Positions 15,602 to 61,928 of a DNA stretch of 64,000 nucleotides are shown here, one piece after another. Position numbers and translations under genes: made by a program. The stretch is from Escherichia phage vB-EcoP-XT18. A model generated the notes under the pieces. That model made no database searches and was not told the DNA's origin. It was given only the letters and a program-made list of their open reading frames with translations. The stretch lies in the sequence record OR757434.1, one strand, 5' to 3'. Every line of letters begins with the position of its first letter. Position 1 is the first letter of the stretch.

Positions 15602-15867
15602 AAGTTATTGTTTTAAGTTAAGTTTTCTTTTGATTTTAATAGAGAATCAAAGTCCTAGGAGTCCTCAACCTAAATCAAGGATTTCCTCAATTCTCTATTT
15701 TTATCTCGCAGGTGTCTCCTGCCCTTCGGTACTTGCAAGGGTTACGATGATTGCCCAATATACAAGCCTGCAATAGCTTTACTAGCTATACAATATATAC
15801 ATTACTAGTGTGTTATATCTACTACCAAAGATACTTATATTATATAGTACCCTTATCGGTATAAGCG

Positions 15868-15876
15868 TAATGTATA
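15868..15876 (+). promoter_or_regulatory. TAATGTATA, putative phage-sigma-dependent promoter
   Basis: in the 330-bp intergenic region upstream of 15935; an inverted copy lies at 15795-15803. Confidence 0.45.
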
Positions 15877-15934: not shown

Positions 15935-16681
15935 ATGAGCATGATCCCAACTATCGCAACTTCTTCTCGTAAATCCAACTACGATATTATCCCTGATGGT
16001 GAATATGAAGCACGTATCGTTCGTGTAGTAGGTTTGGGTGTTCACAATCGTGATCCTTGGGTTGACCCGAAGACCAAAGCAGTAACTCCTAAGAATCCAG
16101 CTTTCCGTATGGATTTGGCTTTCGAGCTGATTGGTGTTGATGCTACTGGTAAAGATTCCGATGGTAAGGCATTAGAACCACGTCCTGCTTGCCAGTTCAA
16201 GAGTTATGATGTAAACCCACGAGCTAAGAACTCTGGTATTCTTGATCTCTGCAAGATGATTGACCCAAGCATTCAAGCACTGAAAGGTGATCTGTCTTGG
16301 TTTAAGGATGTGTTGTTAGGTCAGCCTGTTAACATTCTGGTTAACTCCTACACTAACAAAGCTGGTGAAGTTAAAAACTCCATCAAGACCATTTCTCCAA
16401 TCCCAACCAAATATCGTGCAGCAGTTGGTGAAGCTCGCAGTCCTCTGGTATTCTTCGAACCGTATGCGGAAACCGATGAGAACGTAGCATCCTATCAACT
16501 GATGTTCCCGTTCCAGCGCAACCTGCTTACTCAAGCTAATGACGCTAAGAACATGCCTCTGGCTGGTCGTGAAATTACTCGTGCTTCTGAAACAGAGCAG
16601 AAAGAAGCTACTCCTTCAATCCCTACGATTGATAAAGAGCCTGCTTCTACTTATGAAGATGACAACGACAGCCCATTCTGA
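15935..16681 (+). CDS. hypothetical protein, possibly ssDNA-binding
   Basis: acidic C-terminal tail ending in Phe (YEDDNDSPF), as in T7 gp2.5; promoter-gene-terminator cassette. Confidence 0.3.
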   Translation: MSMIPTIATSSRKSNYDIIPDGEYEARIVRVVGLGVHNRDPWVDPKTKAVTPKNPAFRMDLAFELIGVDATGKDSDGKALEPRPACQFKSYDVNPRAKNSGILDLCKMIDPSIQALKGDLSWFKDVLLGQPVNILVNSYTNKAGEVKNSIKTISPIPTKYRAAVGEARSPLVFFEPYAETDENVASYQLMFPFQRNLLTQANDAKNMPLAGREITRASETEQKEATPSIPTIDKEPASTYEDDNDSPF

Positions 16682-16702
16682 TAACTCTCCTTGTTATAGC
16701 TT

Positions 16703-16726
16703 AGCCACCTTCGGGTGGCTTTTTTC
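16703..16726 (+). terminator. rho-independent terminator
   Basis: perfect stem AGCCACC-UUCG-GGUGGCU then UUUUUU. Confidence 0.75.
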
Positions 16727-16738
16727 GTTGGAGTCAAT

Positions 16739-17089
16739 ATGCAAAGCACTTTAAGTGATAATCTAGGATTTGTTATCTTCTCTGCTCTGGTGTTCTTTGG
16801 TGGTATGAAGTTTAATGAGTACAGAACAGACAGTAACAATCTGGATAAAGAAAAGCATCAACAAGAGTTAGAGATTGAAAGAAGTAAGGCAGCTGATGAA
16901 GTTGCTCAGAGAGTTCTTACCGGTTTATCCAACTGGAAGAAGAACACGGAAACCGTTTATAAAGAGATGCATTATGAGAAAACTAAACCAGTTTTTTATA
17001 ATGTCTGCGCTAGTGATGACTACATCCGCATGTTCAACGAGCGACAGCAGCAGGCAATCGATGCCCTTACCAACAAACCTAAAAGCTGA
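16739..17089 (+). CDS. i-spanin (Rz-like)
   Basis: N-terminal TMD LGFVIFSALVFFGG, periplasmic coiled coil, single Cys; overlapped by the next gene. Confidence 0.55.
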   Translation: MQSTLSDNLGFVIFSALVFFGGMKFNEYRTDSNNLDKEKHQQELEIERSKAADEVAQRVLTGLSNWKKNTETVYKEMHYEKTKPVFYNVCASDDYIRMFNERQQQAIDALTNKPKS

Positions 17090-17230
17090 ATGTAGGGTTG
17101 ACCTGCCTCTTTTAGAGAGTGCTCAAGGAAAGGCACTAGCCACTACGTTGGAGTGGTATCAGGACCAGTACACAGAATGTGCTGCTAATCACAATGGATT
17201 GTTAGAAGCTCTGAAAGAGCGTGGAGTAGA

Positions 17231-17234
<4 letters not shown>
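16974..17234 (+). CDS. o-spanin (Rz1-like lipoprotein), overlapped architecture
   Basis: starts inside the i-spanin gene in another frame; lipoprotein-like signal ending TSAC; Pro-rich with conserved Cys. Confidence 0.5.
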
Positions 17235-18720
<1,486 letters not shown>

Positions 18721-18730
<10 letters not shown>

Positions 18731-21800: not shown

Positions 21801-24800
21801 TCACTCCTTAGGTCGAACTCTTACACGGAGTCTCGATTGACGCTTACTGCGTTCAAGCTTCTCTGACAATGAGCCACGTTTAATCTTCGGCTTCCCTTCG
21901 TCATTAAACTTCTCCAAGAACTGCAAGTACTCAGTACGATTCGTTGTCTTGTAAGAAGGAATCTTAACATCAGGGTTCTCTTCAATCACACGTCTCATCT
22001 TCGCTACATCATCCCTGCCAAGCAACTTACTCTTAGCCTGTTCAGCTGTAGAACCAAAGATCTTCTCCAGTGCTCTGGATTTGTTACCACCTGCGGAAGA
22101 AGCACCAAGTTTAGCAATAGCAGAATAATCATCAGCACTAAACCAAGCTACCGGATTATCGCCATACTTCTTCTTGTTTTCAGCAGCAGTCTGCAATGCA
22201 CGTACAAAGCGACGGTTGTTACCAGCCTTATCTGCACCATGAACCCTGTCTAAAACTTCAGCCACACTAGCTAACTCATCCAAGCTCTTCCCACTCAAGA
22301 AAGCTTTCTCTACTTTATCAGCAAAGACTTCTTCCTGCTGCTTAATACTTTCCAAGATATCAGAATTTGCTTGAGATTTTTCATCGTCAGGCAGAGCAGA
22401 ACGAATCTTCTCCATCTCCATCTCTTCCTCTTGCAGTTTCTTAATATCAGAGTCAACCTTCTGAGCTTCCTCAATAGCCTTCCTAGTATCCGAATCCAAA
22501 TTATCAATCTTACCTTCAGTATCTCCAGTAACCTTAACAATCTCTTTCTCGATAGGAGTCATTGATTCGTACTTCTTAGCAAACTTCTCAACATCAGCCT
22601 CGATACGAGAACGAGCATTCTGATGTTCAGTTGGAGTCATAGGCTTCTCAAGAAGTGCATAACGGTTATCCATGTAGGAACCAGCAAACGCTTCAGCATC
22701 CTCTCTAGATATGCCCTTATCTTCCATAGTACGCACCAGACGGCGATGAATGTCATCACGTTGACGTTGTACTGCCATAAGGTCATTCTCACGCTCTTGG
22801 GCCGCTTTAAGCTCTTCACTGCGCTTAACTCTCTTGTCCACATCAAACTTACGGTTCATCTCTTCCGCTTGCTCATACATCTTGTTCCACTTGGCCTGAC
22901 GAGCATCTTCCTCTGCATCAGTTAAACGACGCTGACGATCAAGGTAATCTGACTCGGCGTTGTGGATACGTTCAATGTAACTACGGAACTTCTCTGGAGG
23001 AACTGGAGAGTTCTTGTCATGGTGAGCAGCCAACTGTTTCAATGTACGAGATTCCTGAGCCTCACGAACAGGTTTAGGTAAACCTTCCATCATCTTCTCA
23101 ATCTCACTCTTCTGAGCTGCAATAGCCTCTAGAGTTTTACGTTCATTCTCAACAGCAGCCTTAGCATCTGAACGAGCCTGAGCTTTGTTTTTCAGAGTGG
23201 CAAGACGTTCTTCACGAGCCTGTAAATGCTTAGCAGCAGCTTCATACTGAGAGTTCTTGTTAGCTTTGTTGAAGGCATTCACTTCTCTGTTATAGGTGTT
23301 AATAAACCCATCCCAAACATCCTTCATCTGACCAACTTCCAAAGCCTCTTCTCTACCAGCCTTCTCTGAAGATTTAAACTTCCCATCTACATAATCATTC
23401 ATCAGCTTACGCATAGCATCTTTCTGAGCAGGACGTAAAGGTTCTGAATCAATCAAAGTGTCAATCTCAGACTGAAGCTCTTTCTTCTGGTCAACCAGTT
23501 TAGGAGCATCTTTCTTATCAAAAGCTTTGTTCTCTTCTAGAGCTTGTTGATACAGTCTATCAAACTCATCCTCACGCTGCTTCTGATACAATCTTTCAGC
23601 ACGACGTTTCAGACTATCCAAGTTAGTAACGTTCCCACCTAAACCTTTCTCTTCAGCACGTAATGCCTTAGTAGCAATATCTTCTGGCAGACCACGTTCC
23701 TTAACCCATTCAGCAAAATTAGTTCGTACAGTGTTGTTCTTAGCAGTAGCAATACCTTGCTGAGAAGACAACTGGTTACGAGCCATTTCTTCATGACGTT
23801 CAGTGTTGATAGCATTATCTTCCTGACGAATACGACGCATCAATTCCTTAGGATCACCTTTATAAGCCAAGAAGTTTTCAGCAGTAGCTTTAGCCTTAGC
23901 AGCCTTAGAGTACAGAGAACGAGCAAAGCGTTCTGCACGATCTTTAGTAGCCTGACGAGCAGCACTAGACATAGCAGCTAAACGTTCTACACCACTTGCC
24001 GGTTTAACGTCCTGTACAGCTTCCTTAGGAGCTTTAGGAGCACGGGCAGGTAATGGCTCAGCTTTGACTGTTGGTTCCTCTACGGTTGGTTCTGGAGCCT
24101 GTGCGGCCTCTTCTTGAGCACGTTGCTGTTCCATTGCACGACGTTCCTCTAAAGGGTTACGAGCAGGGAGAGGTTCAGCCTGTGGAGCTTGTTCGACCGG
24201 AGCTTCTTGAGCCTGTGCTGCCTCTTCTTCAGCGCGACGCTGTTCAGCCTGACGGATAGCACGTCTTTGCGCAACTAAATCACGAGCTGTAAGAGGGGTT
24301 TCTTGAGGAGCAGAAGAAGAAAGATTTTCTTCCGTCACAGTACTAGAAGAAGGCTCCCGAACCGGTTCGGTTTCTACGTCATTTTGCGTCTTAAATTTAA
24401 TGTCACCAACAACTGGTTCTTCTTCCATTTTAGCACGAGCTTCATCAGCAGTAGACTTAGCACGAGCAACTTCCAAATCACCACGAGCCAGAGAGCGGAT
24501 AGCTTCACTGTTAGATTCTTGTTGCTTAACACGTTGAGAGCGAGCACGCTGAGAAGAGAAGCGATTCAGAGCATACTTAGCAGCACCGAGTGTGTTCATA
24601 ACCAGACTAGGAGAAGAAGCCTCACGGAATCCATCATCAGTCAGGGACGTCCAACCACGGTCTTGGTTGCTCATGAACTTAGCTGTATTATTCAGAGTGT
24701 AAGCATCTTGAATAGGATTAAAACCTTCAGGCATACCTTTCAGTTTCTTCAACCCACCAATAGCTTTCTTCATCTCTGGAGAAACATTATCAGCCATCTT

Positions 24801-26222
24801 CTGTAGTTCAGCAGCTTTCTCTACAAAGTTATTAAAGTCTTCACCATCACGAGCTTTGAATCGATTTGCTTCATTGTAGAAAGTCTTGTAAGCATCAATG
24901 AAATCACGGTCAGCTTGTGTACGGTTCTTAATGTCAATCGGACTACCAGTAAAATCACCAGAAGCTCGGAGAGAAACTAACTCACGATCAAGATTATCCA
25001 GAACATCTGTAAGAGCTTTAGTGTTATCCTTTGTGTAATCAGCCATTGCATCTTTCATAGCAACAGCTTGCTTCTGGTTGTGCTCGTTATCAGCGAATGC
25101 TTTACCACGAACTTTAGAAGGAGAAGCCAAAGGATTGAGGCCAGGAATGTTAGAATGTTCTTTCTGAACAGAAGCAGCTTTCTCGGCACGAGCTTGGTCT
25201 GTATTAAGGATGCGCTGAGCAGCAGGAGAGTCTACAGCAACAGCATCTGTGATACGGAATCCGTTCTCATCCAGAAGGTTAAGGGCAGAAGCGGCGTTAG
25301 CAGTTTCAGCTTTAGAGTATGCTTCTTTCAGCTCATCAATGTTCTTAGCACTACGAATTAATTCATCATCAGCAGCAATGTCAGTCTTTGCATACTCTGG
25401 AGTATTCTTAAAGACAGCAGAATCTGGACGACTAATCAAACCATGGACACCACCAACTGCACCACCGAATGCAGCACCCATAGCGCCTTCTTCAATAGCA
25501 CCTTCTAAGACATTAGAAAAGGTTGTGTCATCACCATGTTTGTTCTGAGCTTCAGCAGCACCTACAAGAGCACCACCTTTAGCACCAGCCACTGCGTTAC
25601 TAGCAACGTTCTGACCAATACGACCAAGTGTAGACTCAGCTGTACCAACAGCACCCGGAAGGATTCTCTGAGCTGCATAGTTAGCACCACCAACTAGAGC
25701 GGCATCCAGAACAGACTTATCTTCTCCCTCTTCAGGAGTTTGGTCTGCATATGCACGACCTGTCTCACGACCTGCAATGATAGCAGCGGCAGCTAATGGG
25801 TTAGCAACAGTCAAACCAATATCACCAACAACGCCAGCATATTGCCCAGCAGTTTTACCAATCCCATCCTCAATCTTATCCATACGATCTTTCAGAAGGT
25901 TCTGAGAGTTCTCTTGGATACGCTTACCATAACTAGTTTGTGCTCCAGCTAGATTCTCACCAATCTCAACTAAACCACCAATACCTTTAGCAGCACTAGC
26001 TGCAATGTTTGCACCACCAGATTGAAGAGCATTTGACACACCTTGAGCAAACTCACCTATAGCACCACGTTCTTCTTGTTGTGGTTGTGCTACTGGTTGT
26101 TCCTCAGGAATAGAGCCACCTGCTGCCTTATATTGTTCTCTCATTTGAGCTTGACGCTCCGGAGAGGCATTCAGATACGCAGGAGCTTTGGAAGCTTCTT
26201 CCCACGGTTTAATGTTAGCCAT
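21801..26222 (-). CDS. large internal virion / DNA-ejection protein (about 1473 aa)
   Basis: long Ala/Gly-rich N-terminus then extended coiled coil; start reassigned to the ATG at 26220-26222 with AAGGAG RBS (track start 26267 lies inside the promoter motif). Confidence 0.5.
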   Translation of the reverse strand: MANIKPWEEASKAPAYLNASPERQAQMREQYKAAGGSIPEEQPVAQPQQEERGAIGEFAQGVSNALQSGGANIAASAAKGIGGLVEIGENLAGAQTSYGKRIQENSQNLLKDRMDKIEDGIGKTAGQYAGVVGDIGLTVANPLAAAAIIAGRETGRAYADQTPEEGEDKSVLDAALVGGANYAAQRILPGAVGTAESTLGRIGQNVASNAVAGAKGGALVGAAEAQNKHGDDTTFSNVLEGAIEEGAMGAAFGGAVGGVHGLISRPDSAVFKNTPEYAKTDIAADDELIRSAKNIDELKEAYSKAETANAASALNLLDENGFRITDAVAVDSPAAQRILNTDQARAEKAASVQKEHSNIPGLNPLASPSKVRGKAFADNEHNQKQAVAMKDAMADYTKDNTKALTDVLDNLDRELVSLRASGDFTGSPIDIKNRTQADRDFIDAYKTFYNEANRFKARDGEDFNNFVEKAAELQKMADNVSPEMKKAIGGLKKLKGMPEGFNPIQDAYTLNNTAKFMSNQDRGWTSLTDDGFREASSPSLVMNTLGAAKYALNRFSSQRARSQRVKQQESNSEAIRSLARGDLEVARAKSTADEARAKMEEEPVVGDIKFKTQNDVETEPVREPSSSTVTEENLSSSAPQETPLTARDLVAQRRAIRQAEQRRAEEEAAQAQEAPVEQAPQAEPLPARNPLEERRAMEQQRAQEEAAQAPEPTVEEPTVKAEPLPARAPKAPKEAVQDVKPASGVERLAAMSSAARQATKDRAERFARSLYSKAAKAKATAENFLAYKGDPKELMRRIRQEDNAINTERHEEMARNQLSSQQGIATAKNNTVRTNFAEWVKERGLPEDIATKALRAEEKGLGGNVTNLDSLKRRAERLYQKQREDEFDRLYQQALEENKAFDKKDAPKLVDQKKELQSEIDTLIDSEPLRPAQKDAMRKLMNDYVDGKFKSSEKAGREEALEVGQMKDVWDGFINTYNREVNAFNKANKNSQYEAAAKHLQAREERLATLKNKAQARSDAKAAVENERKTLEAIAAQKSEIEKMMEGLPKPVREAQESRTLKQLAAHHDKNSPVPPEKFRSYIERIHNAESDYLDRQRRLTDAEEDARQAKWNKMYEQAEEMNRKFDVDKRVKRSEELKAAQERENDLMAVQRQRDDIHRRLVRTMEDKGISREDAEAFAGSYMDNRYALLEKPMTPTEHQNARSRIEADVEKFAKKYESMTPIEKEIVKVTGDTEGKIDNLDSDTRKAIEEAQKVDSDIKKLQEEEMEMEKIRSALPDDEKSQANSDILESIKQQEEVFADKVEKAFLSGKSLDELASVAEVLDRVHGADKAGNNRRFVRALQTAAENKKKYGDNPVAWFSADDYSAIAKLGASSAGGNKSRALEKIFGSTAEQAKSKLLGRDDVAKMRRVIEENPDVKIPSYKTTNRTEYLQFLEKFNDEGKPKIKRGSLSEKLERSKRQSRLRVRVRPKE

Positions 26223-26260
26223 AACGTCTCCTTTTATAAATAAAAATGTCCTACCCCCTA

Positions 26261-26269
26261 TATACATTA
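26261..26269 (-). promoter_or_regulatory. TAATGTATA, putative phage-sigma-dependent late promoter
   Basis: minus strand reads CTATAATGTATATAG about 35 nt upstream of the 26222 ATG. Confidence 0.45.
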
Positions 26270-32858: not shown

Positions 32859-35816
32859 TTATCTTCGCCCGCCAACAGCAAATTCAATAGTTAGGCCATT
32901 GATAGCTGCATTACTGTTAACATCATTATCTATAACATTATAGAATAGATACGGATGGTTCAGTCGGACACCTACATGTCTGTCCACACCAATCGTATAA
33001 GACTTTTCACTGTGAATATGTCTATCTTCCTGATCAGAATACTGACTACCGCCAGCTTGGAATATATAGGTACCTGACCCTGTTACTTGTGGACGGAATC
33101 GGTTTATGTGCTTCTGATTCCATTCGTTAGTTACATTGTCAAAATCTATACCAGTTCTTTCCAGTTTCATCTCTAAAGGCTTCCTGACAACAATATCATT
33201 CAACCTATCGAATGAGTAGTCATAAGGACCTACATCCACTTGGTAAAAGCCTTTCATCCAAGAACCTACTACAGTGACTCTCTGACGGAAGTTAGTAGAA
33301 TCCTTTCTCCACACAAGTTCACTGATTGAAGGGTCATCCCAAGTATACTCTTGGAAATCCACCCAAGTAGGACCTTTCTCTAGAGTTGGAGGATCAACTA
33401 AACCGATACAATGAGAGAATGGGATTGTACGGAAAGACCATGTATCAAACTCATAGTTCCATACAGCGGCTTTAGTACAAGCAAAACTCCCAGCAGGCTC
33501 TCCGGGTCCAACATAGAGAATCCACACTTCCTTCTTATCTTGATGTAAGTGAACCTTAGTGGCTAAAGGGTTTACTAAACAGATTTCGTTGATAAGCATG
33601 TTCTTGACCCTGTTGGATGCAATAGATTTCTTAGTTGCACCATTGTGTAGAATAACATCATTCTGAGTAACAACAAAGTGACTGCTCTCAACTTCAACCA
33701 CACACTCAGGAGCTAAGATTCCAGAATCGTTGAAGAGCTTCTTGAACATTAGTGGTTGATATGTGTTGTTAGTTGGGGATCCGATGTAAGTCTCAAACTC
33801 TGTGTAGATAAATAAGTAATCCTTAAGAGGAAGAATCTCAACTAAACTACCGTTTGAGTCAGCTAAATCTATATACCCAGCATATCCATTTTCCAGAGCC
33901 TCAGTCTGACCTACAACGTTTGCCGCTAAGTCTGAAGTCACATATCTATCGTAAGCAAAATCATCCCATAAAGTAGGTGCCTTATTCTCATTAGCGTAAT
34001 TAGACCAGCGAAGGCGAAGAGGATAGTGAGTGGTAACCCCTGATGCATTAGACTCTCGCATATTAAGAGCAAATAGGCGATTATTAAATGCACGAATCCT
34101 TTCGCACTTCCAGTTATATTTTACAACAGATGGGTTTCCGTTAGCATCAACTATCGTCTGCTCCCCCCACCCCGGAAGATCTGTGAAGTACTCAGAGGCA
34201 AACTCTTTTACTTGAGGGGTTTCGTAGTGAGTGGTGAATACTGCGCAGTTAGAAATAATCGTATTGTACCAAGGATATTCCTCAAACGCTTCATAGTCTC
34301 TACGAGCTACCTGACTAGCAGTACAGGTTATCTTCACTTTGCCAGTCTTAATAGCAGTTAAGGTAAAGGAAGGCCCAGTAGTGGAAGTAGAGGATACATA
34401 TCCCGGCTGATCTACCACCCAATTATAAAGATAGTCTCCTTCAGGGAATGCCGTTGCAGTTATTACTAATTCATCTCCAACATCAATTTCAGTATCCACA
34501 ATGTCAAGAGTTAAAGTTTCAAGTTGAGCTGACCTTGACATAACTGCATTTAAAGAATAGGCTTCGACTCCATCAACCATAGAATAGTCATAAAAAGGGT
34601 TGCCCTCTGACATAGCCGAAGTGTCGATACCTGAATCCGTAGAACTCGGTTCTTCAGGAGGAGCTGATGCAGCAGCAAAAAGGGTTCTACTTGACAGCTC
34701 AACTCTAACACTACAGGTAGCTGTCCTCTCACCTTCTTCCGTAGTTGCTGTTATAACTGTGAACCCAGCTGTGAGTCCAGAGATAGTACCTTGAAGACCT
34801 GTTCCAGAAACAGTAGCAATATTTGGATTAGAGGAGGTCCAAGTTATTTTCTGATTTGCAGCATTTGATGGGATTAAACTAGCATACAAGACATATGACG
34901 CCCCACGGTTAATTTGTAAATCTGTTTGACTCAAAGATATACTGTCAATTTGATTAATAACACTAACAGAACATTCTGAGGTCTTAGACCCATTGCTTGC
35001 AGTTATTAGTGCATTACCTACTCCTTGAGCGGATAAAACTGCTGTAGTAGTATCACCGTTAGGAGCTACAGAAATAATGGCTGGGTTAGAAGAAGTCCAT
35101 GTTAGAGGGGTCTTACTGGATGTTGCTGTAAGTGTGGTTGTTCCGCCTTTACGGAGTTGGACAGAGTCCCGGTTAAGGAAGATACCAGAATCAGAATCAA
35201 CAACCCTTACGGAGATGCTGGCAGTCACAGAATCATCTTCATTAGAGACAGTGACAGTAAAGCTGCCCTCATTAGATAAGACACTCAATGTAGCTTTCTT
35301 ACTATCATCAGGATCAACTAGTATTGAACCATAAGAAGGATTACTAACCTCCCACACAAGAGATGGTGTAGTAACACCCTCCGGAAGAAGAGATACCTCA
35401 AGAGTCTTGCTTTCATTAAAATTCATAATGACAGACGTTTCTTTAGGGATGATCTCCGTTAGTACAGGATTTATCTTAACATAAGACACAGCTTTTTTGG
35501 TGACTGTAGCCACTCTTCGACTAACATCAATCATAGATTCGTTGTTCAGTCTAAAAATACTCTTATCTGTACCTACCAGCAAGAAGCTATTGTTAGCGCT
35601 AAAGTAGTCAAAAGGCATTGAAGCGAATGATAATGGTTTTATTTCTTTATCACTCTCAACGTAAGAAAGAGGGGCAGAGCCCCCCGTTTTAAACACACGC
35701 TGTTCTACAAACCGAGCATTGATTGCATTAGTGAATGCATTAGGAGCCAGATCTGTAGGAGATTGGTCGGCAATAACACCAACCGCACCCAAAGATTTTA
35801 TTGGGTAGAGAGCCAT
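32859..35816 (-). CDS. large structural protein with three Big_2-like Ig domains
   Basis: repeats of the form ITWTSSNP..ATV......G...ITA typical of bacterial Ig-like group 2 domains. Confidence 0.5.
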   Translation of the reverse strand: MALYPIKSLGAVGVIADQSPTDLAPNAFTNAINARFVEQRVFKTGGSAPLSYVESDKEIKPLSFASMPFDYFSANNSFLLVGTDKSIFRLNNESMIDVSRRVATVTKKAVSYVKINPVLTEIIPKETSVIMNFNESKTLEVSLLPEGVTTPSLVWEVSNPSYGSILVDPDDSKKATLSVLSNEGSFTVTVSNEDDSVTASISVRVVDSDSGIFLNRDSVQLRKGGTTTLTATSSKTPLTWTSSNPAIISVAPNGDTTTAVLSAQGVGNALITASNGSKTSECSVSVINQIDSISLSQTDLQINRGASYVLYASLIPSNAANQKITWTSSNPNIATVSGTGLQGTISGLTAGFTVITATTEEGERTATCSVRVELSSRTLFAAASAPPEEPSSTDSGIDTSAMSEGNPFYDYSMVDGVEAYSLNAVMSRSAQLETLTLDIVDTEIDVGDELVITATAFPEGDYLYNWVVDQPGYVSSTSTTGPSFTLTAIKTGKVKITCTASQVARRDYEAFEEYPWYNTIISNCAVFTTHYETPQVKEFASEYFTDLPGWGEQTIVDANGNPSVVKYNWKCERIRAFNNRLFALNMRESNASGVTTHYPLRLRWSNYANENKAPTLWDDFAYDRYVTSDLAANVVGQTEALENGYAGYIDLADSNGSLVEILPLKDYLFIYTEFETYIGSPTNNTYQPLMFKKLFNDSGILAPECVVEVESSHFVVTQNDVILHNGATKKSIASNRVKNMLINEICLVNPLATKVHLHQDKKEVWILYVGPGEPAGSFACTKAAVWNYEFDTWSFRTIPFSHCIGLVDPPTLEKGPTWVDFQEYTWDDPSISELVWRKDSTNFRQRVTVVGSWMKGFYQVDVGPYDYSFDRLNDIVVRKPLEMKLERTGIDFDNVTNEWNQKHINRFRPQVTGSGTYIFQAGGSQYSDQEDRHIHSEKSYTIGVDRHVGVRLNHPYLFYNVIDNDVNSNAAINGLTIEFAVGGRR

Positions 35817-35825
35817 ACTTCCTCC

Positions 35826-36629
35826 TTAACTAATACGTCTCCAGATATATGCTGCACGGAAAGGTGGTAGCGTATTTATAGGTTGACGAGATACGTCATC
35901 ATAGCCAAATGTTGCATTGCCAGTGATAGAGTGGGTGTGGGTATCAGAACTTGTTACAGCAGAATATCCACTACCTGGACTGTACCAGTTAGGTGAGCTA
36001 TTATGACCACTTGCATCTCCACGTCCAAATGATGTAGTGTGTGAGTGTGTATAGTTAGAAAGAGAAAAACTTGAACCAGAGATTGTAGTCAATGGCAGGT
36101 TCTCTGTCTTAACTGTGTTGTAAACACGACCACCTGTAGCACCAGCAGTAAACTCCACACGCTGAGCATTAGGGACTGTCCCATCAGGGTTCACAACCCC
36201 AGCACCCATGATAACACCAGTAACTGCTGTCCAGATACCAAACCCTAAAGATGTAGAATCTCCAGGGTTAATATCTTCCTCAGTGATGTAATAAGACCCA
36301 ACCCTGTAAATCTTATTCTGCATCCAGTTGAGCATAAAAGATTCCATTTGAGCTTTGGTGGTAAAGTCGCTATTACCAGTACCTGCTGTACCGTTCTTAA
36401 TCATCAGACCACCAACATCCATATAGTCACCAGCAAAAGAGATCTTGTCAGAGATGGCGGCTAGTGTATCAGAATCTACTGTCATAGGCTCAGTTAAGTT
36501 GGGGAATGTGTTCTGTAATACTTGCTTAACTAGGCGCAGCTGGGCTGCACCTTCATAGATATAATCTCTATCACGAGGATAGAGAGGGTTTAAGTCGGTA
36601 ACTACTACCGCATTAGTTTCAATAGCCAA
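35826..36629 (-). CDS. tail-fibre-like structural protein
   Basis: ORF in the late operon; Gly/Ser/Thr-rich C-terminus. Confidence 0.4.
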   Translation of the reverse strand: MAIETNAVVVTDLNPLYPRDRDYIYEGAAQLRLVKQVLQNTFPNLTEPMTVDSDTLAAISDKISFAGDYMDVGGLMIKNGTAGTGNSDFTTKAQMESFMLNWMQNKIYRVGSYYITEEDINPGDSTSLGFGIWTAVTGVIMGAGVVNPDGTVPNAQRVEFTAGATGGRVYNTVKTENLPLTTISGSSFSLSNYTHSHTTSFGRGDASGHNSSPNWYSPGSGYSAVTSSDTHTHSITGNATFGYDDVSRQPINTLPPFRAAYIWRRIS

Positions 36630-36641
36630 GAGGCACCTCCA

Positions 36642-37133
36642 TTAATATTTACCTTCGGTATAAAGATCAGCTTCTGCAACCCTTCTGTTATGAAGACCCT
36701 GACTTCTCTGCTTCACTCCCTTGACCGTTATCTTATCCCAACGAAGAAATTCAGAATATACATCCCCTTTAACGTCTCCATTGATAACCTTCCTTAACTT
36801 AGATGTGCTCAAAGCCCCACTACCAACATTAAAGTTGAAAGAGGTGAGTGCATCAAACTCATGAACTAGCAAAGGAACCTTTATGTTCTTCTGAGTAGCA
36901 CGAACAGAGTCTTGTGTGTCTCTATCTAGCAGAGCTAGACAATCCTCTATAGAATACGTTAATCCTTGTCTAACCGGATAACCATTCATATCGCGCGTAG
37001 CCCCTACACATATCGTCCAGATACCTGCGGAATCTTTATAAGCCTTAGTTCTCATACCCTCATGCTTCATGATAAATTCAATTCCAGCTGGGCTTAAGTT
37101 TAATTGTACAGGTGGCAATGCGGCGTTATCCAT
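36642..37133 (-). CDS. lysozyme (T4 lysozyme-like, GH24)
   Basis: FIMKHEGMRTKAYKDSAGIWTICVG matches the GH24 catalytic region. Confidence 0.75.
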   Translation of the reverse strand: MDNAALPPVQLNLSPAGIEFIMKHEGMRTKAYKDSAGIWTICVGATRDMNGYPVRQGLTYSIEDCLALLDRDTQDSVRATQKNIKVPLLVHEFDALTSFNFNVGSGALSTSKLRKVINGDVKGDVYSEFLRWDKITVKGVKQRSQGLHNRRVAEADLYTEGKY

Positions 37134-37162: not shown

Positions 37163-37381
37163 TTAAGGTAATATCTTTCTCAGAGCGTTAGATTCAGCAT
37201 CAGGACAAATAACAACTAAGTTATTTTGAATTATTCTCTGCTTACATTGAGAACTAAGTTTCTCTACTGGAGCAGGGATATTTACTAATGGGTGAACTGC
37301 ACCTACAGGAACTGCGGTCGACACCACAACACCTGCACCTAAACACACCAAACCATATGCAGCTTGTTTCATCATTTTCAT
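37163..37381 (-). CDS. small membrane protein, possible holin
   Basis: single 23-aa hydrophobic segment; directly upstream of the lysozyme. Confidence 0.3.
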   Translation of the reverse strand: MKMMKQAAYGLVCLGAGVVVSTAVPVGAVHPLVNIPAPVEKLSSQCKQRIIQNNLVVICPDAESNALRKILP

Positions 37382-37496
37382 TTAAGTGTCTCCTATATAT
37401 TAACCTCTTGAGATATATTAGTTTCATTACCCATCAAGAAAAGGTACTGCTAAAAATTCTTGATGGGCTGTTCTTATCACATATAGAGTATCAAGA

Positions 37497-39569
37497 TCAT
37501 ATCAATCCATAGATGATGTTGTGAAGAACACACCCCCCAACTGCGCCACCTATGTTGAAATTAATTTCAGCCTTACTGGACCCTGGAGGAACTGAATCAA
37601 TAACAGCATAGAAACTGAACGAGTTGTTACTAGGTATGTAATATCCAATAGACTCAGAAACTGCATTACCTGCTGAATCTAGAAACCTAATAGATGCTAG
37701 TGTAGTGGTTGTATTCTTAGCCCAAAAACCAAACTGAAAGTATCTTCCGGGATGACACTCACTCACTGATTGGGTGAAGTTTGCCGAGCTAGTCGTATCT
37801 GGGACACCAAAAGAGAATGATGTGTTAAACATAGGAGACGAACTCGGAACATCATTGGGTTGAGAAACTGACACTACCCCTGATCCTGTTTGACTAAATG
37901 TCCAGTTAGATGTATTTAAGAATTGCCCGGAACCATTACTAAGACTATTAATGTAAGGGCTTACAATAGATCCAAGATCCCACCTACTTAAGACAAAACC
38001 AGCTCTAGGGTAACATCCGTTAGACACAACTCTCTTACTATCACCGCCGATGAGTTGGCGAGTAGGGAAACCAGTGGCTAGAGTATTGTTGCCATACAGA
38101 GGTAGAGAGCAGTTTGTCAGAGAAACAAAACCATCCCCATTACTTACTATAGGGACAGAACTAAAACCTACAGGGACCAAAATTGTCGAATCTTTTATGC
38201 TCAATCTCGAACTACCATTAACAGAAAAAGAAACAAAAGACTGATCCGGTTGATACTCAATGTTCCCATTAGAAAAAACAACTGTGGCGTTGTCTGTCAT
38301 TATAATGGTTGGGTCAAAATATCCAGACTTTTTCCCAGCAGGAAGTGAACACGTATCAAAGATGAATTGTCCATTCTCAAAAGTAAAAGGTCCTCCGTTA
38401 TCCACGCACCAGCAGTGATTGAACTTTATAACTTCTCCAGAGTTCGCTCTTGATTTAAAAACAACCGTGTCCGTAAAGCTTCTACTTATTGCACATTTGT
38501 CAAAAAGGATCCTATATGAATTATCAAGGAATTCAAGACCAGCTGTTGAGATAAAACCACAATTTTCTATCCGAACTTCCGACACCTCCCCACTATCAGT
38601 CCCTCCAATTACAACCTTTCTGGCACCTAGACCAACAAAGGACACTCCTGATATCTTAGCTGTTGAAGAAATCGAATCTCTAAGCCCATAATCTGTGTTT
38701 GAATTTATAATCTTCAAGAAATATTGACCTGTTGCTCCAGCCCCTTCCTGAAGCTTACAATTATTATAGCCTATCAAGGCTCCTTTAGAAACGTCAATAG
38801 CTATCTCAGATAATACGGATCCAGAAGTTGGAACTATACAATCGTAACCAGAGGAGTTCACTTTGTTGATATAAACAGCAATATCCCCGCTGCCAGTGTA
38901 GCCTGCATCAAACACAGAAGCTTCTCCAGAGAATAGCAACCTCTTCCATTTTACAGAAACTCCACTGAAAACCACCACCCCATCAGCTGTTTCTGAATTG
39001 TCTATTGCTACAAACACACCCCCTCCCATATTAGCCCCTTCGACATAAGATCTTACAAAGACTTTGTCACCTACAGAAGCTCCCTCTAAGGTCTGAAGTT
39101 GTTCAATAGAGGGGAGATCTCCAATAAGATTAAACCCTGTAGGCAGGCCTAGTTCTTGAGAGACCACATTAGATACCTGACCTAATGCCACTGCTTCGTC
39201 ACTCTCAACGGCGTTTGGTATACGTATAGGTTGAGAAAAAGTTACCTTATTTGTCATCGAAGTAATATCTGAGTTAGCCCCACTCTTAGCCGCAACCAGT
39301 GCGAGCCTTGCCGTGTCCGGAGAAGAGGCTCCTGTACCACCTTTCGAAATAGGAACAATATTTTCTACAGAAACATCACCTAATCCTAAATTAGATCTAG
39401 CAATAGTAGTATTAATTGCTCCTGTACCACCTTTCGAAATAGGAACAATATTTTCTACAGAAACATCACCTAATCCTAAATTAGATCTAGCAATAGTAGT
39501 ATTAATTGCTCCTGTACCACCTTTCGAAATAGGAACAGGCTCCTGTACCACCTTTCGAAATAGGAACAA
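37497..39569 (-). CDS. tail fibre, C-terminal portion (gene appears split by a frameshift in the repeat array)
   Basis: begins with identical 30-aa tail-fibre repeats (SKGGTGAINTTIARSNLGLG); overlaps the upstream ORF by 68 nt. Confidence 0.6.
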   Translation of the reverse strand: MFLFRKVVQEPVPISKGGTGAINTTIARSNLGLGDVSVENIVPISKGGTGAINTTIARSNLGLGDVSVENIVPISKGGTGASSPDTARLALVAAKSGANSDITSMTNKVTFSQPIRIPNAVESDEAVALGQVSNVVSQELGLPTGFNLIGDLPSIEQLQTLEGASVGDKVFVRSYVEGANMGGGVFVAIDNSETADGVVVFSGVSVKWKRLLFSGEASVFDAGYTGSGDIAVYINKVNSSGYDCIVPTSGSVLSEIAIDVSKGALIGYNNCKLQEGAGATGQYFLKIINSNTDYGLRDSISSTAKISGVSFVGLGARKVVIGGTDSGEVSEVRIENCGFISTAGLEFLDNSYRILFDKCAISRSFTDTVVFKSRANSGEVIKFNHCWCVDNGGPFTFENGQFIFDTCSLPAGKKSGYFDPTIIMTDNATVVFSNGNIEYQPDQSFVSFSVNGSSRLSIKDSTILVPVGFSSVPIVSNGDGFVSLTNCSLPLYGNNTLATGFPTRQLIGGDSKRVVSNGCYPRAGFVLSRWDLGSIVSPYINSLSNGSGQFLNTSNWTFSQTGSGVVSVSQPNDVPSSSPMFNTSFSFGVPDTTSSANFTQSVSECHPGRYFQFGFWAKNTTTTLASIRFLDSAGNAVSESIGYYIPSNNSFSFYAVIDSVPPGSSKAEINFNIGGAVGGCVLHNIIYGLI

Positions 39570-41857: not shown

Positions 41858-41866
41858 TATACATTA
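41858..41866 (-). promoter_or_regulatory. TAATGTATA, putative phage-sigma-dependent promoter
   Basis: minus strand reads GTGTAATGTATATTC about 35 nt upstream of the HNH start. Confidence 0.45.
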
Positions 41867-61853: not shown

Positions 61854-61928
61854 GTCCCTATAGTTAAAAGGATATAACAGATTTCTTCTAAAAATCCATT
61901 CTAGGTTCGAGTCCTAGTGGGGACGCCA
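61854..61928 (+). tRNA. tRNA-Arg (anticodon UCU) with encoded CCA
   Basis: hand-folded cloverleaf: 7-bp acceptor stem with one G-U, D arm GTTA/TAAC, anticodon stem GATTT/AAATC with loop CTTCTAA, T arm CTAGG-TTCGAGT-CCTAG, discriminator G. Confidence 0.8.

Follow-up and report, generated by a model that had tools for sequence, protein, structure and literature searches.

Two overlapping plus-strand open reading frames (ORFs) in the window, by which we mean the whole 64,000-nucleotide stretch of DNA that was analysed, raise the question of whether they encode the two-component spanin of the phage, and of how such a pair would be expressed when the holin and endolysin genes lie elsewhere in the genome. 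For the spanin class, which comprises an i-spanin and an o-spanin, we followed the definitions of Summer 2007 and Kongari 2018. A 2.9-kb stretch around the pair was 100% identical to Escherichia phage vB-EcoP-XT32 (OR757435), a Kuravirus, and 93–96% identical to phiEco32, SU10, Paul, SGF2 and about 90 other podophages of the Kuravirus/Gordonclarkvirinae. By these identities, the window is that of a phiEco32-like podophage (Kuravirus), which belongs to a well-sampled group.

Both the spanin pair and its unlinked layout are already catalogued and annotated for phiEco32-type phages and are not new. The supplement of the spanin survey lists 'Phieco32 ovl, 35417-35768 / 35272-35533, overlap 116', provides protein sequences for KBNP1711, ECBP2 and NJ01, and states that the annotated o-spanin start needed to be shifted upstream; in the main text, phiEco32 is assigned to JH2 among the i-spanin families and to an o-spanin family of four members (Kongari et al., 2018). 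The GenBank record of phage Paul annotates a terminator, an i-spanin and an o-spanin and, about 19 kb away between the tail spike and the baseplate, a 'holin class III' and an 'endolysin glycosidase'. In the GenBank record of XT32 (OR757435), both spanin genes are labelled hypothetical and the second is begun at a downstream ATG. The main value of the present analysis for the window is a correction of the annotation, with the right genes at 16739–17089 and 16974–17234 (Table 1); the spanin pair itself raises no new question.

Table 1. Coordinates of the predicted lysis genes, their neighbours and the phage promoter elements in the window.
Feature	Coordinates	Strand	Description	Evidence
P68 equivalent	4184	+	aAATGTATA	
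P58 equivalent	9672	+	TAATGTATA	
P40 equivalent	15868–15876	+	TAATGTATA, exact match; 59 nt upstream of the gene-40 homologue	
phiEco32 gene 40 homologue	15935–16681	+	248 aa	phrog_6599 (E = 1e-118); synteny with phi32_40
Hairpin	16703–16726	+	G+C-rich, UUCG loop, followed by a T run	Terminator scan; predicted fold (−16.6 kcal/mol, z = −2.8)
i-spanin ribosome-binding site	16730–16733	+	GGAG, 5 nt before the ATG	Sequence reading; invariant in the alignment
Predicted i-spanin gene	16739–17089	+	116 aa	phrog_1152, hydropathy, Cys positions, conservation, codon periodicity
Predicted o-spanin gene	16974–17234	+	86 aa; +1 frame relative to the i-spanin gene	Lipobox, phrog_2425, tblastn, Paul annotation, Kongari 2018
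Macro-domain (Appr-1-p processing) gene	17234–17674	+		PF01661 (E = 5e-9); Paul and phiEco32 annotation
Phage sigma factor gene (phiEco32 gp36 homologue)	17694–18341	+		Weak Sigma70_r2 match; Paul and phiEco32 annotation
P26 equivalent	26261	−	TAATGTATA	
Soluble GH24 endolysin gene	36642–37133	−	163 aa	PF00959 (E = 7e-32); phrog_7 (endolysin)
Putative class III holin gene	37163–37381	−	72 aa	phrog_11161 'holin' (E = 1e-47); hydropathy; 'holin class III' in Paul
P13 equivalent (late)	41858–41866	−	TAATGTATA, exact match; upstream of the tail-fibre, holin and endolysin genes	
P6 equivalent	49545	−	TAATGTAgA	

Membrane and export signals of the two proteins

Hydropathy analysis of the first protein revealed a sole hydrophobic stretch at residues 9–25 (nt 16763–16813, LGFVIFSALVFFGGMKF), with a mean of 1.9 in the best 17-aa Kyte-Doolittle window, as would be the case for a single N-terminal transmembrane helix. 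The orthologue in phage Paul is annotated as an i-spanin with a TMpred transmembrane domain at residues 8–23. The protein has a single cysteine, Cys90, which lies in the predicted periplasmic part. Its N-terminal tail, MQSTLSDN, contains no basic residue, and therefore the positive-inside rule does not by itself fix an N-in/C-out topology; the survey supplement flags a tail free of basic residues for the NJ01 homologue as well (Kongari et al., 2018). A single-sequence AlphaFold model of the i-spanin was all-helical (residues 5–30, 37–76, 79–90 and 93–111) at low confidence (mean pLDDT 58). For comparison, the supplement gives 61% helix and no coiled-coil call for phiEco32, and one coiled-coil segment for NJ01.

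The N-terminus of the second protein, MRKLNQFFIMSALVMTTSAC followed by STSD, contains a basic n-region, a hydrophobic core and the lipobox TSAC. Residues 1–19 form the lipoprotein signal peptide, and the predicted lipidated residue is Cys20 (codon 17031–17033), with Ser at position +2. This sequence fits the lipobox pattern of the spanin survey, [ILMFTV][^REKD][GAS]C with no Asp at +2 for outer-membrane sorting (Kongari et al., 2018), including the Thr at position −3, which that definition permits but which is not the classical Leu. The Paul orthologue is annotated as an o-spanin with a LipoP SpII site at 19/20 (score 18). Two further cysteines, Cys40 and Cys69, are predicted to be periplasmic. 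The transmembrane segment and the lipobox, which the initial annotation had set as a check on its assignment, are both present.

Evidence for two coding frames

The two ORFs share 116 nt, with the second in the +1 frame, an architecture classed as overlapped, and the phiEco32 entry in the survey supplement is identical in this respect. The initial annotation had placed an overlapped plus-strand pair at 16739–17234, with the second gene starting inside the first in another frame, and these coordinates are exact. We aligned the spanin region of the window with those of Paul, phiEco32, KBNP1711, EP335, HC-25922 and Bas88 (76–93% nucleotide identity). Both ORFs, the lipobox Cys20, Cys40 and Cys69 of the o-spanin and Cys90 of the i-spanin were intact in every relative examined; each predicted periplasmic part accordingly retains at least one cysteine. 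In the region covered only by the i-spanin gene, the variable sites at codon positions 1, 2 and 3 of its frame numbered 23, 12 and 49 (chi-square p=1.6e-9); the corresponding counts for the o-spanin frame in the region covered only by that gene were 19, 5 and 39 (p=4.5e-11). The overlap was less variable than the remainder (22% versus 39%, Fisher p=0.001), as is expected for double coding. Judged from these patterns, the overlapping pair is more than a product of chance, and the minus-strand ORFs in the same interval are therefore best regarded as mechanical.

It could be argued that only the 116-aa protein is real, that 16974–17234 is a chance open frame, and that gene 38 is a short ORF of 57 aa. 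The GenBank records of XT32 and phiEco32 indeed annotate only a 174-nt ORF that begins after the lipobox, and the ATG at 16974 is preceded by a weak ribosome-binding site (GAG). We consider this explanation exceedingly improbable. All relatives have the long form intact, signal peptide and lipobox cysteine included, the drop in variability coincides with the overlap, the o-spanin frame is periodic downstream of it, and the survey supplement explicitly moves the start upstream. Moreover, in SU7, Bas86, Bas87 and PAS59, in which the overlap is split by an HNH endonuclease cassette (see below), the second ORF has regained an in-frame lipoprotein signal peptide. This replacement argues strongly for an exported lipoprotein being under selection.

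Two further candidates in this region were not retained. A longer o-spanin starting at TTG 16875 or ATG 16896 was rejected, as the sequence upstream of 16974 displayed only i-frame periodicity and normal variability. A sigma-70-like promoter inside the overlap (16974–17002, 10/12 matches) was treated as a chance occurrence, given that the scan returned 6 sites compared to 10.5 in shuffled sequences.

Family membership of the pair

In a PHROG search, residues 2–116 of the i-spanin matched phrog_1152, 'Rz-like spanin' (E=1.2e-37), and the o-spanin matched phrog_2425 (E=3e-27), a family that carries no function label. Neither protein matched the lambda Rz/Rz1 families in a Pfam scan at E≤0.1, in which the i-spanin yielded just a sub-threshold DUF7333 match and the o-spanin yielded nothing, and neither matched an NCBIfam model. 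On the basis of architecture and their own family, the two proteins are classed as spanins and not as members of the lambda Rz/Rz1 sequence families. The labels 'Rz-like' and 'Rz1-like' in the initial annotation are thus appropriate for topology and architecture but not for sequence family.

When 50,697 phage records were searched by tblastn, the i-spanin was found in 441 and the o-spanin in 236, many of them annotated as i-spanin or o-spanin. The matches include FelixO1-like myoviruses, Erwinia Ea21-4-like phages and 9NA-like siphoviruses, and those of the i-spanin include JH2, FelixO1, Moogle and UAB_Phi87, in keeping with membership of the JH2 family. Salmonella phage Solent encodes a homologous o-spanin (34% identity) that, together with an i-spanin partner, closes a canonical holin-endolysin-holin-spanin cassette. 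This location ties the spanin family to lysis.

An inner-membrane protein and a lipoprotein that are made with the middle genes and serve a purpose other than lysis, for instance superinfection exclusion or envelope modification, might look similar, in which case the outer membrane would be disrupted by some other means. The missing Pfam Rz or Rz1 match and the absence of positive charge in the i-spanin N-terminal tail would be compatible with such a role, as would the position of the pair, which lies 19 kb from holin and endolysin in a middle-gene cluster, with macro-domain and sigma-factor genes as its neighbours. We nevertheless find this explanation very unlikely. A type II membrane protein overlapping a small lipoprotein, both with periplasmic cysteines, is the signature of spanins, and the spanin survey reports no other candidate for the phiEco32-type group (Kongari et al., 2018). 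The Solent o-spanin homologue, paired with an annotated i-spanin, stands at the end of a lysis cassette, and T4 and FelixO1 illustrate that unlinked spanins are normal.

Holin and endolysin genes

The initial annotation had also pointed to a lysozyme and a candidate holin on the minus strand among tail genes about 20 kb away. Both genes were confirmed at the positions given in Table 1, and 19.4 kb separate the o-spanin stop from the lysozyme gene. With the spanin pair on the plus strand and the holin and lysozyme on the minus strand, the two sets of genes cannot share a transcript. The neighbours of the holin and endolysin genes encode a tail spike or fibre protein (37497–39569) and a tail or baseplate protein (35826–36629), which match phrog_6465 and phrog_4217. 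The holin-endolysin block is common to 98/98 related records and corresponds to genes 16 and 17 in phiEco32 numbering.

The GH24 endolysin lacks an N-terminal hydrophobic stretch (maximum Kyte-Doolittle hydropathy 0.86) and is therefore predicted to be soluble and dependent on a holin for release. For the same reason, its designation as a SAR endolysin in the MN03 and MN05 records was ruled out. The putative holin has one membrane helix at approximately residues 7–29, and Cys46 and Cys59 are in its C-terminal part. A sequence 13 nt upstream of the holin start, TAATATATA, differs by one mismatch from the phage promoter element and was considered as a dedicated promoter for the lysis genes. It was rejected because it is not conserved in Paul and because one-mismatch matches to the element occurred at chance frequency (19 found, 21.6 expected).

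Transcription units and timing of expression

In phiEco32, early and middle genes occupy one strand, opposite to that of the late structural genes, and six promoters for the phage sigma factor gp36, each consisting of a single element, tAATGTAtA, precede genes 6, 13, 26, 40, 58 and 68 (PMC8948821; the element consensus and P40/P13 are listed in Table S3 therein). All six elements were recovered at matching places in the window (Table 1). Of these, the P40 element is the one closest upstream of the spanin genes, and the match suggests that it would act as their promoter in the phage of the window. The first gene after it, the gene-40 homologue, has no assigned function and encodes a protein with an acidic C-terminal tail (...DDNDSPF); it heads the transcription unit that contains the spanins. 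Between it and the i-spanin gene is a 70-nt intergenic region with 93% mean column identity among 8 phages, which exceeds that of the flanking coding sequence. The hairpin in this region, annotated as a terminator in phage Paul, is likely an intrinsic terminator or attenuator.

On the downstream side, the stop codon of the o-spanin gene and the ATG that follows share nucleotides (TGATG), and by this arrangement the macro-domain gene is judged to be translationally coupled to the o-spanin stop and in a common operon with it. The sigma-factor gene follows, and 3' of it are a SLOG-family gene, a dNMP kinase gene and an exonuclease gene. The plus-strand cluster that includes the sigma-factor gene belongs to the middle class in phiEco32 and the structural cluster to the late class (PMC8948821). 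The proposal that lysis functions are split across two transcription units is therefore supported, by the opposite strands, by the P40 and P13 elements and by the published phiEco32 map.

By analogy with that map, the spanins would be expressed with the middle class, and going by its class assignments the lysis functions are probably also split between two temporal classes. Because P40 depends on the phage sigma factor, spanin expression may extend into, or even peak in, the late period. The split could also be purely physical, with synthesis of the spanins coinciding in practice with that of the holin and endolysin, and no temporal separation. The P40 element is the same TAATGTATA sequence as in the late promoters P13 and P26, and the corresponding promoter P48 in phage 7-11 acts as a late promoter. 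Pointing the other way are the middle-class assignment of the sigma-factor gene cluster in phiEco32 (PMC8948821) and the conserved hairpin with its T run, which follows gene 40 and would lower and not raise transcription of the spanin genes. A purely physical split is possible, though it is not the reading that we prefer, and it contradicts neither the identity of the genes nor the existence of two transcription units.

The intergenic region also holds a CUCC stretch that is able to pair with the GGAG of the i-spanin ribosome-binding site. One could speculate that the spanins are deliberately wired into the autoregulatory operon of the sigma factor, and that the region between gene 40 and the i-spanin gene is an attenuator that provides a low early dose of spanin. 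We think this rather unlikely. If it were true, the envelope would be pre-loaded with spanin complexes before the late holin and endolysin appear, and the temporal division of lysis functions would be regulated instead of being an accident of genome layout.

Proposed role in lysis

The combined data make it highly probable that the two ORFs together encode the two-component spanin of a phage of the phiEco32 type, transcribed apart from the holin and endolysin. In this proposal, the spanin genes would be the first to be transcribed after gene 40, downstream of P40 and the hairpin, and would form an operon with the macro-domain and sigma-factor genes. The N-terminal helix would hold the i-spanin in the inner membrane, and the helical domain of the protein would reach into the periplasm. 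The o-spanin would be exported, lipidated at Cys20 and, because its +2 residue is Ser and not Asp, sorted to the outer membrane. By analogy with lambda Rz/Rz1 and T4 PseT.3/PseT.2, the C-terminal parts of the two proteins would bind each other to give a complex that spans the periplasm and is probably stabilised by disulfides between Cys90 of the i-spanin and Cys40/Cys69 of the o-spanin. Intact peptidoglycan would keep these complexes inactive. The one-helix holin would then let out the soluble GH24 endolysin, and once the wall is degraded, lysis would be completed by spanin-mediated fusion of the inner membrane with the outer one.

Separation of the spanin genes from the holin gene would be tolerated in this scheme because the holin alone sets the timing of lysis, so that spanins made earlier could accumulate without harm. 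This reasoning would likewise account for the unlinked spanin genes of T4 (pseT.3/pseT.2; Kongari 2018) and FelixO1. The window provides one more case of the known rule that spanin genes need neither linkage to, nor co-transcription with, the genes for holin and endolysin.

Comparison with known spanin systems

The closest counterparts are the orthologous spanins of the Kuravirus/Gordonclarkvirinae in Kongari 2018, namely phiEco32 gp39/gp38, those of NJ01, ECBP2 and KBNP1711, and Paul CPT_Paul_036/035. They are assigned to the i-spanin family 'JH2' and the o-spanin family 'NJ01' and share about 90–95% protein identity with the window (about 80–90% for KBNP1711, a member of Nieuwekanaalvirus). 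Their lengths (116 and 86 aa) and the 116-nt overlap are the same as in the window, as are the neighbours, with gene 40 and the hairpin preceding the pair and the macro-domain and sigma-factor genes following it, and the place of the holin and endolysin genes among tail genes. The window differs only by point substitutions, e.g. MTTSAC in the lipobox region where phiEco32 and Paul have MSMSAC.

In FelixO1 (Felix01p014/p015, Felixounavirus), the i-spanin belongs to the same sequence family (about 31% identity, E ~1e-8) and the o-spanin is weakly related (29%, E=7e-4). That pair is likewise overlapped and is found among early and nucleotide-metabolism genes (rIIB, polynucleotide kinase), far from the endolysin and lysis genes. 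Unlike the phage of the window, FelixO1-type phages are myoviruses with another genome context, and their o-spanin is in a separate family in Kongari 2018. T4 PseT.3/PseT.2 resemble the window pair in being a two-component spanin that is not near the holin (t) and endolysin (e) genes (Kongari 2018, Fig. 8 legend) and in having proteins of similar size (117 and 83 aa). In T4, the two genes are 'separated', whereas those in the window overlap, and we detected no sequence similarity between the two pairs. The lambda Rz/Rz1 pair shares its topology plan with that of the window: a type II inner-membrane protein is combined with a small lipoprotein of the outer membrane, whose gene reads the same DNA in the +1 frame. 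Both pairs have periplasmic cysteines, and the mechanism is presumed to be the same. In contrast to lambda Rz1, which is fully embedded in Rz, the window o-spanin runs past the end of the i-spanin; and while the lambda pair concludes the late lysis cassette S-R-Rz/Rz1, the pair in the window is unlinked from holin and endolysin.

An HNH cassette within the overlap in sister phages

In Bas86, Bas87, SU7 and PAS59, an HNH endonuclease cassette of about 515 nt lies inside the spanin overlap and is flanked by a duplication of about 31 nt. The upstream duplicate is open in the i frame only and has stops in the o frame; the i-spanin that it yields is 113 aa long, and its C-terminus is new (...QQQAAEALKLKN). 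The downstream duplicate keeps the o frame, which gives a complete o-spanin, 88 aa long in Bas86. The o-spanin starts with a different lipoprotein signal, MLTKKKQKSCLVI(L/F)LASSLMAC, whose codons lie at the 3' end of the HNH gene but in another frame. The authors of the SU7 record annotated the ORF with the replacement signal as an O-spanin, and the GenBank record of Bas86 joins the two pieces around the HNH ORF as though they were separated by an intron. An Rfam scan (E≤1) of the Bas86 spanin gene returned no group I intron, and the i-spanin and o-spanin ORFs are each complete; an intron was rejected in favour of a duplication plus insertion. From the sequences, the pair in these four phages seems to have arisen naturally from an overlapped one, which the homing-endonuclease cassette turned into a separated pair. 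This observation is more interesting than the main finding and may merit a short note, as a concrete example of spanin architectures interconverting.

An HNH cassette separates the spanin genes of sister phages

In Bas86, SU7, PAS59 and Bas87, the overlap between the i-spanin and o-spanin genes is interrupted by an HNH-endonuclease cassette of ~515 nt, which is flanked on either side by a duplication of ~31 nt. The i-spanin retains copy 1 of the duplication and becomes a 113-aa protein with a new C-terminus. The o-spanin retains copy 2 and has its lipoprotein signal peptide replaced by MLTKKKQKSCLVI[LF]LASSLMAC, for which the 3'-terminal part of the HNH gene codes in another reading frame. The result is a separated spanin pair in place of an overlapped one. 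Since no group I intron was detected at the Bas86 locus (Rfam scan, E<=1), the joined 'Rz-like spanin' CDS of the Bas86 record is probably wrong.

HNH cassette loci of sister phages and features of the window
Feature	Source	Locus	Coordinates (strand)
HNH cassette locus	Bas86, PQ850622	L007	940-1710
HNH cassette locus	SU7, MZ342906	L010	381-1418
HNH cassette locus	PAS59	L011	
HNH cassette locus	Bas87, PQ850594		
One-mismatch promoter-element copy	window		15787-15795 (-)
Minus-strand promoter-element copy	window		15796-15804 (-)
Near-palindrome	window		15868-15886
Gene-40 homologue	window		15935-16681 (+)
Gene-40 homologue to i-spanin	window		16670-16745
Conserved CUCC	window		16687-16690
Genes directly 3' of spanins	window		17231-18730 (+)
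1488-aa ORF	window		21801-26267
P26-equivalent element	window		26261-26269 (-)
ATG of 1488-aa ORF	window		26267-26265
Lysozyme	window		36642-37133 (-)
Putative holin	window		37163-37381 (-)
Region holding stem-loop	window		37382-37496
tRNA gene	window		61854-61925 (+)

Sequences surrounding the spanin genes

The intergenic sequence that separates the gene-40 homologue from the i-spanin gene is almost invariant among 8 phages whose coding sequences diverge by up to 25%. It holds a UUCG-loop hairpin followed by a T run. In the minimum-energy fold, the GGAG of the i-spanin is base-paired to the conserved CUCC, a pairing that could mask the ribosome-binding site. Directly 3' of the spanins are genes for a macro-domain protein (PF01661), the sigma factor of the phage and a YspA/SLOG-family protein. 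The last is annotated as either 'GTP-binding' or 'chromosome segregation protein' depending on the record, and these conflicting annotations could be harmonised.

The P40 promoter directly serves the gene-40 homologue (248 aa, phrog_6599), whose NCBIfam match to NGO0469, a family for phage replication initiation, is sub-threshold (E=1e-5). Its C-terminus is an acidic tail, ...YEDDNDSPF, that resembles the C-terminal tips of single-stranded-DNA-binding proteins. The P40 element lies within the near-palindrome TAATGTATAcTATACATaA. A further copy of the promoter element TAATGTATA, on the minus strand, and an adjoining one-mismatch copy are directed into the phosphatase gene, the opposite way from gene 40.

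Holin, lysozyme and other features

In GenBank, the records of some close relatives (MN03, MN05) call the lysozyme a 'SAR-endolysin'. This label looks wrong because the N-terminus is without a hydrophobic segment (best 17-aa hydropathy 0.86). The putative holin, of the class III type, combines one membrane helix with two C-terminal cysteines that look conserved. Just upstream of it, after the tail-spike gene, is the stem-loop CCCATCAAGAA...TTCTTGATGGG, whereas the equivalent site in the related phage Paul has another hairpin, with a UUCG loop.

The P26-equivalent promoter element and the ATG of the 1488-aa ORF overlap. An RNA started 6-8 nt downstream of the element would begin within the ORF, and either the real start codon is further down or the promoter serves something else. 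The early region contains only one tRNA gene (Rfam RF00005, 57 bits), consistent with the one tRNA reported for Paul.
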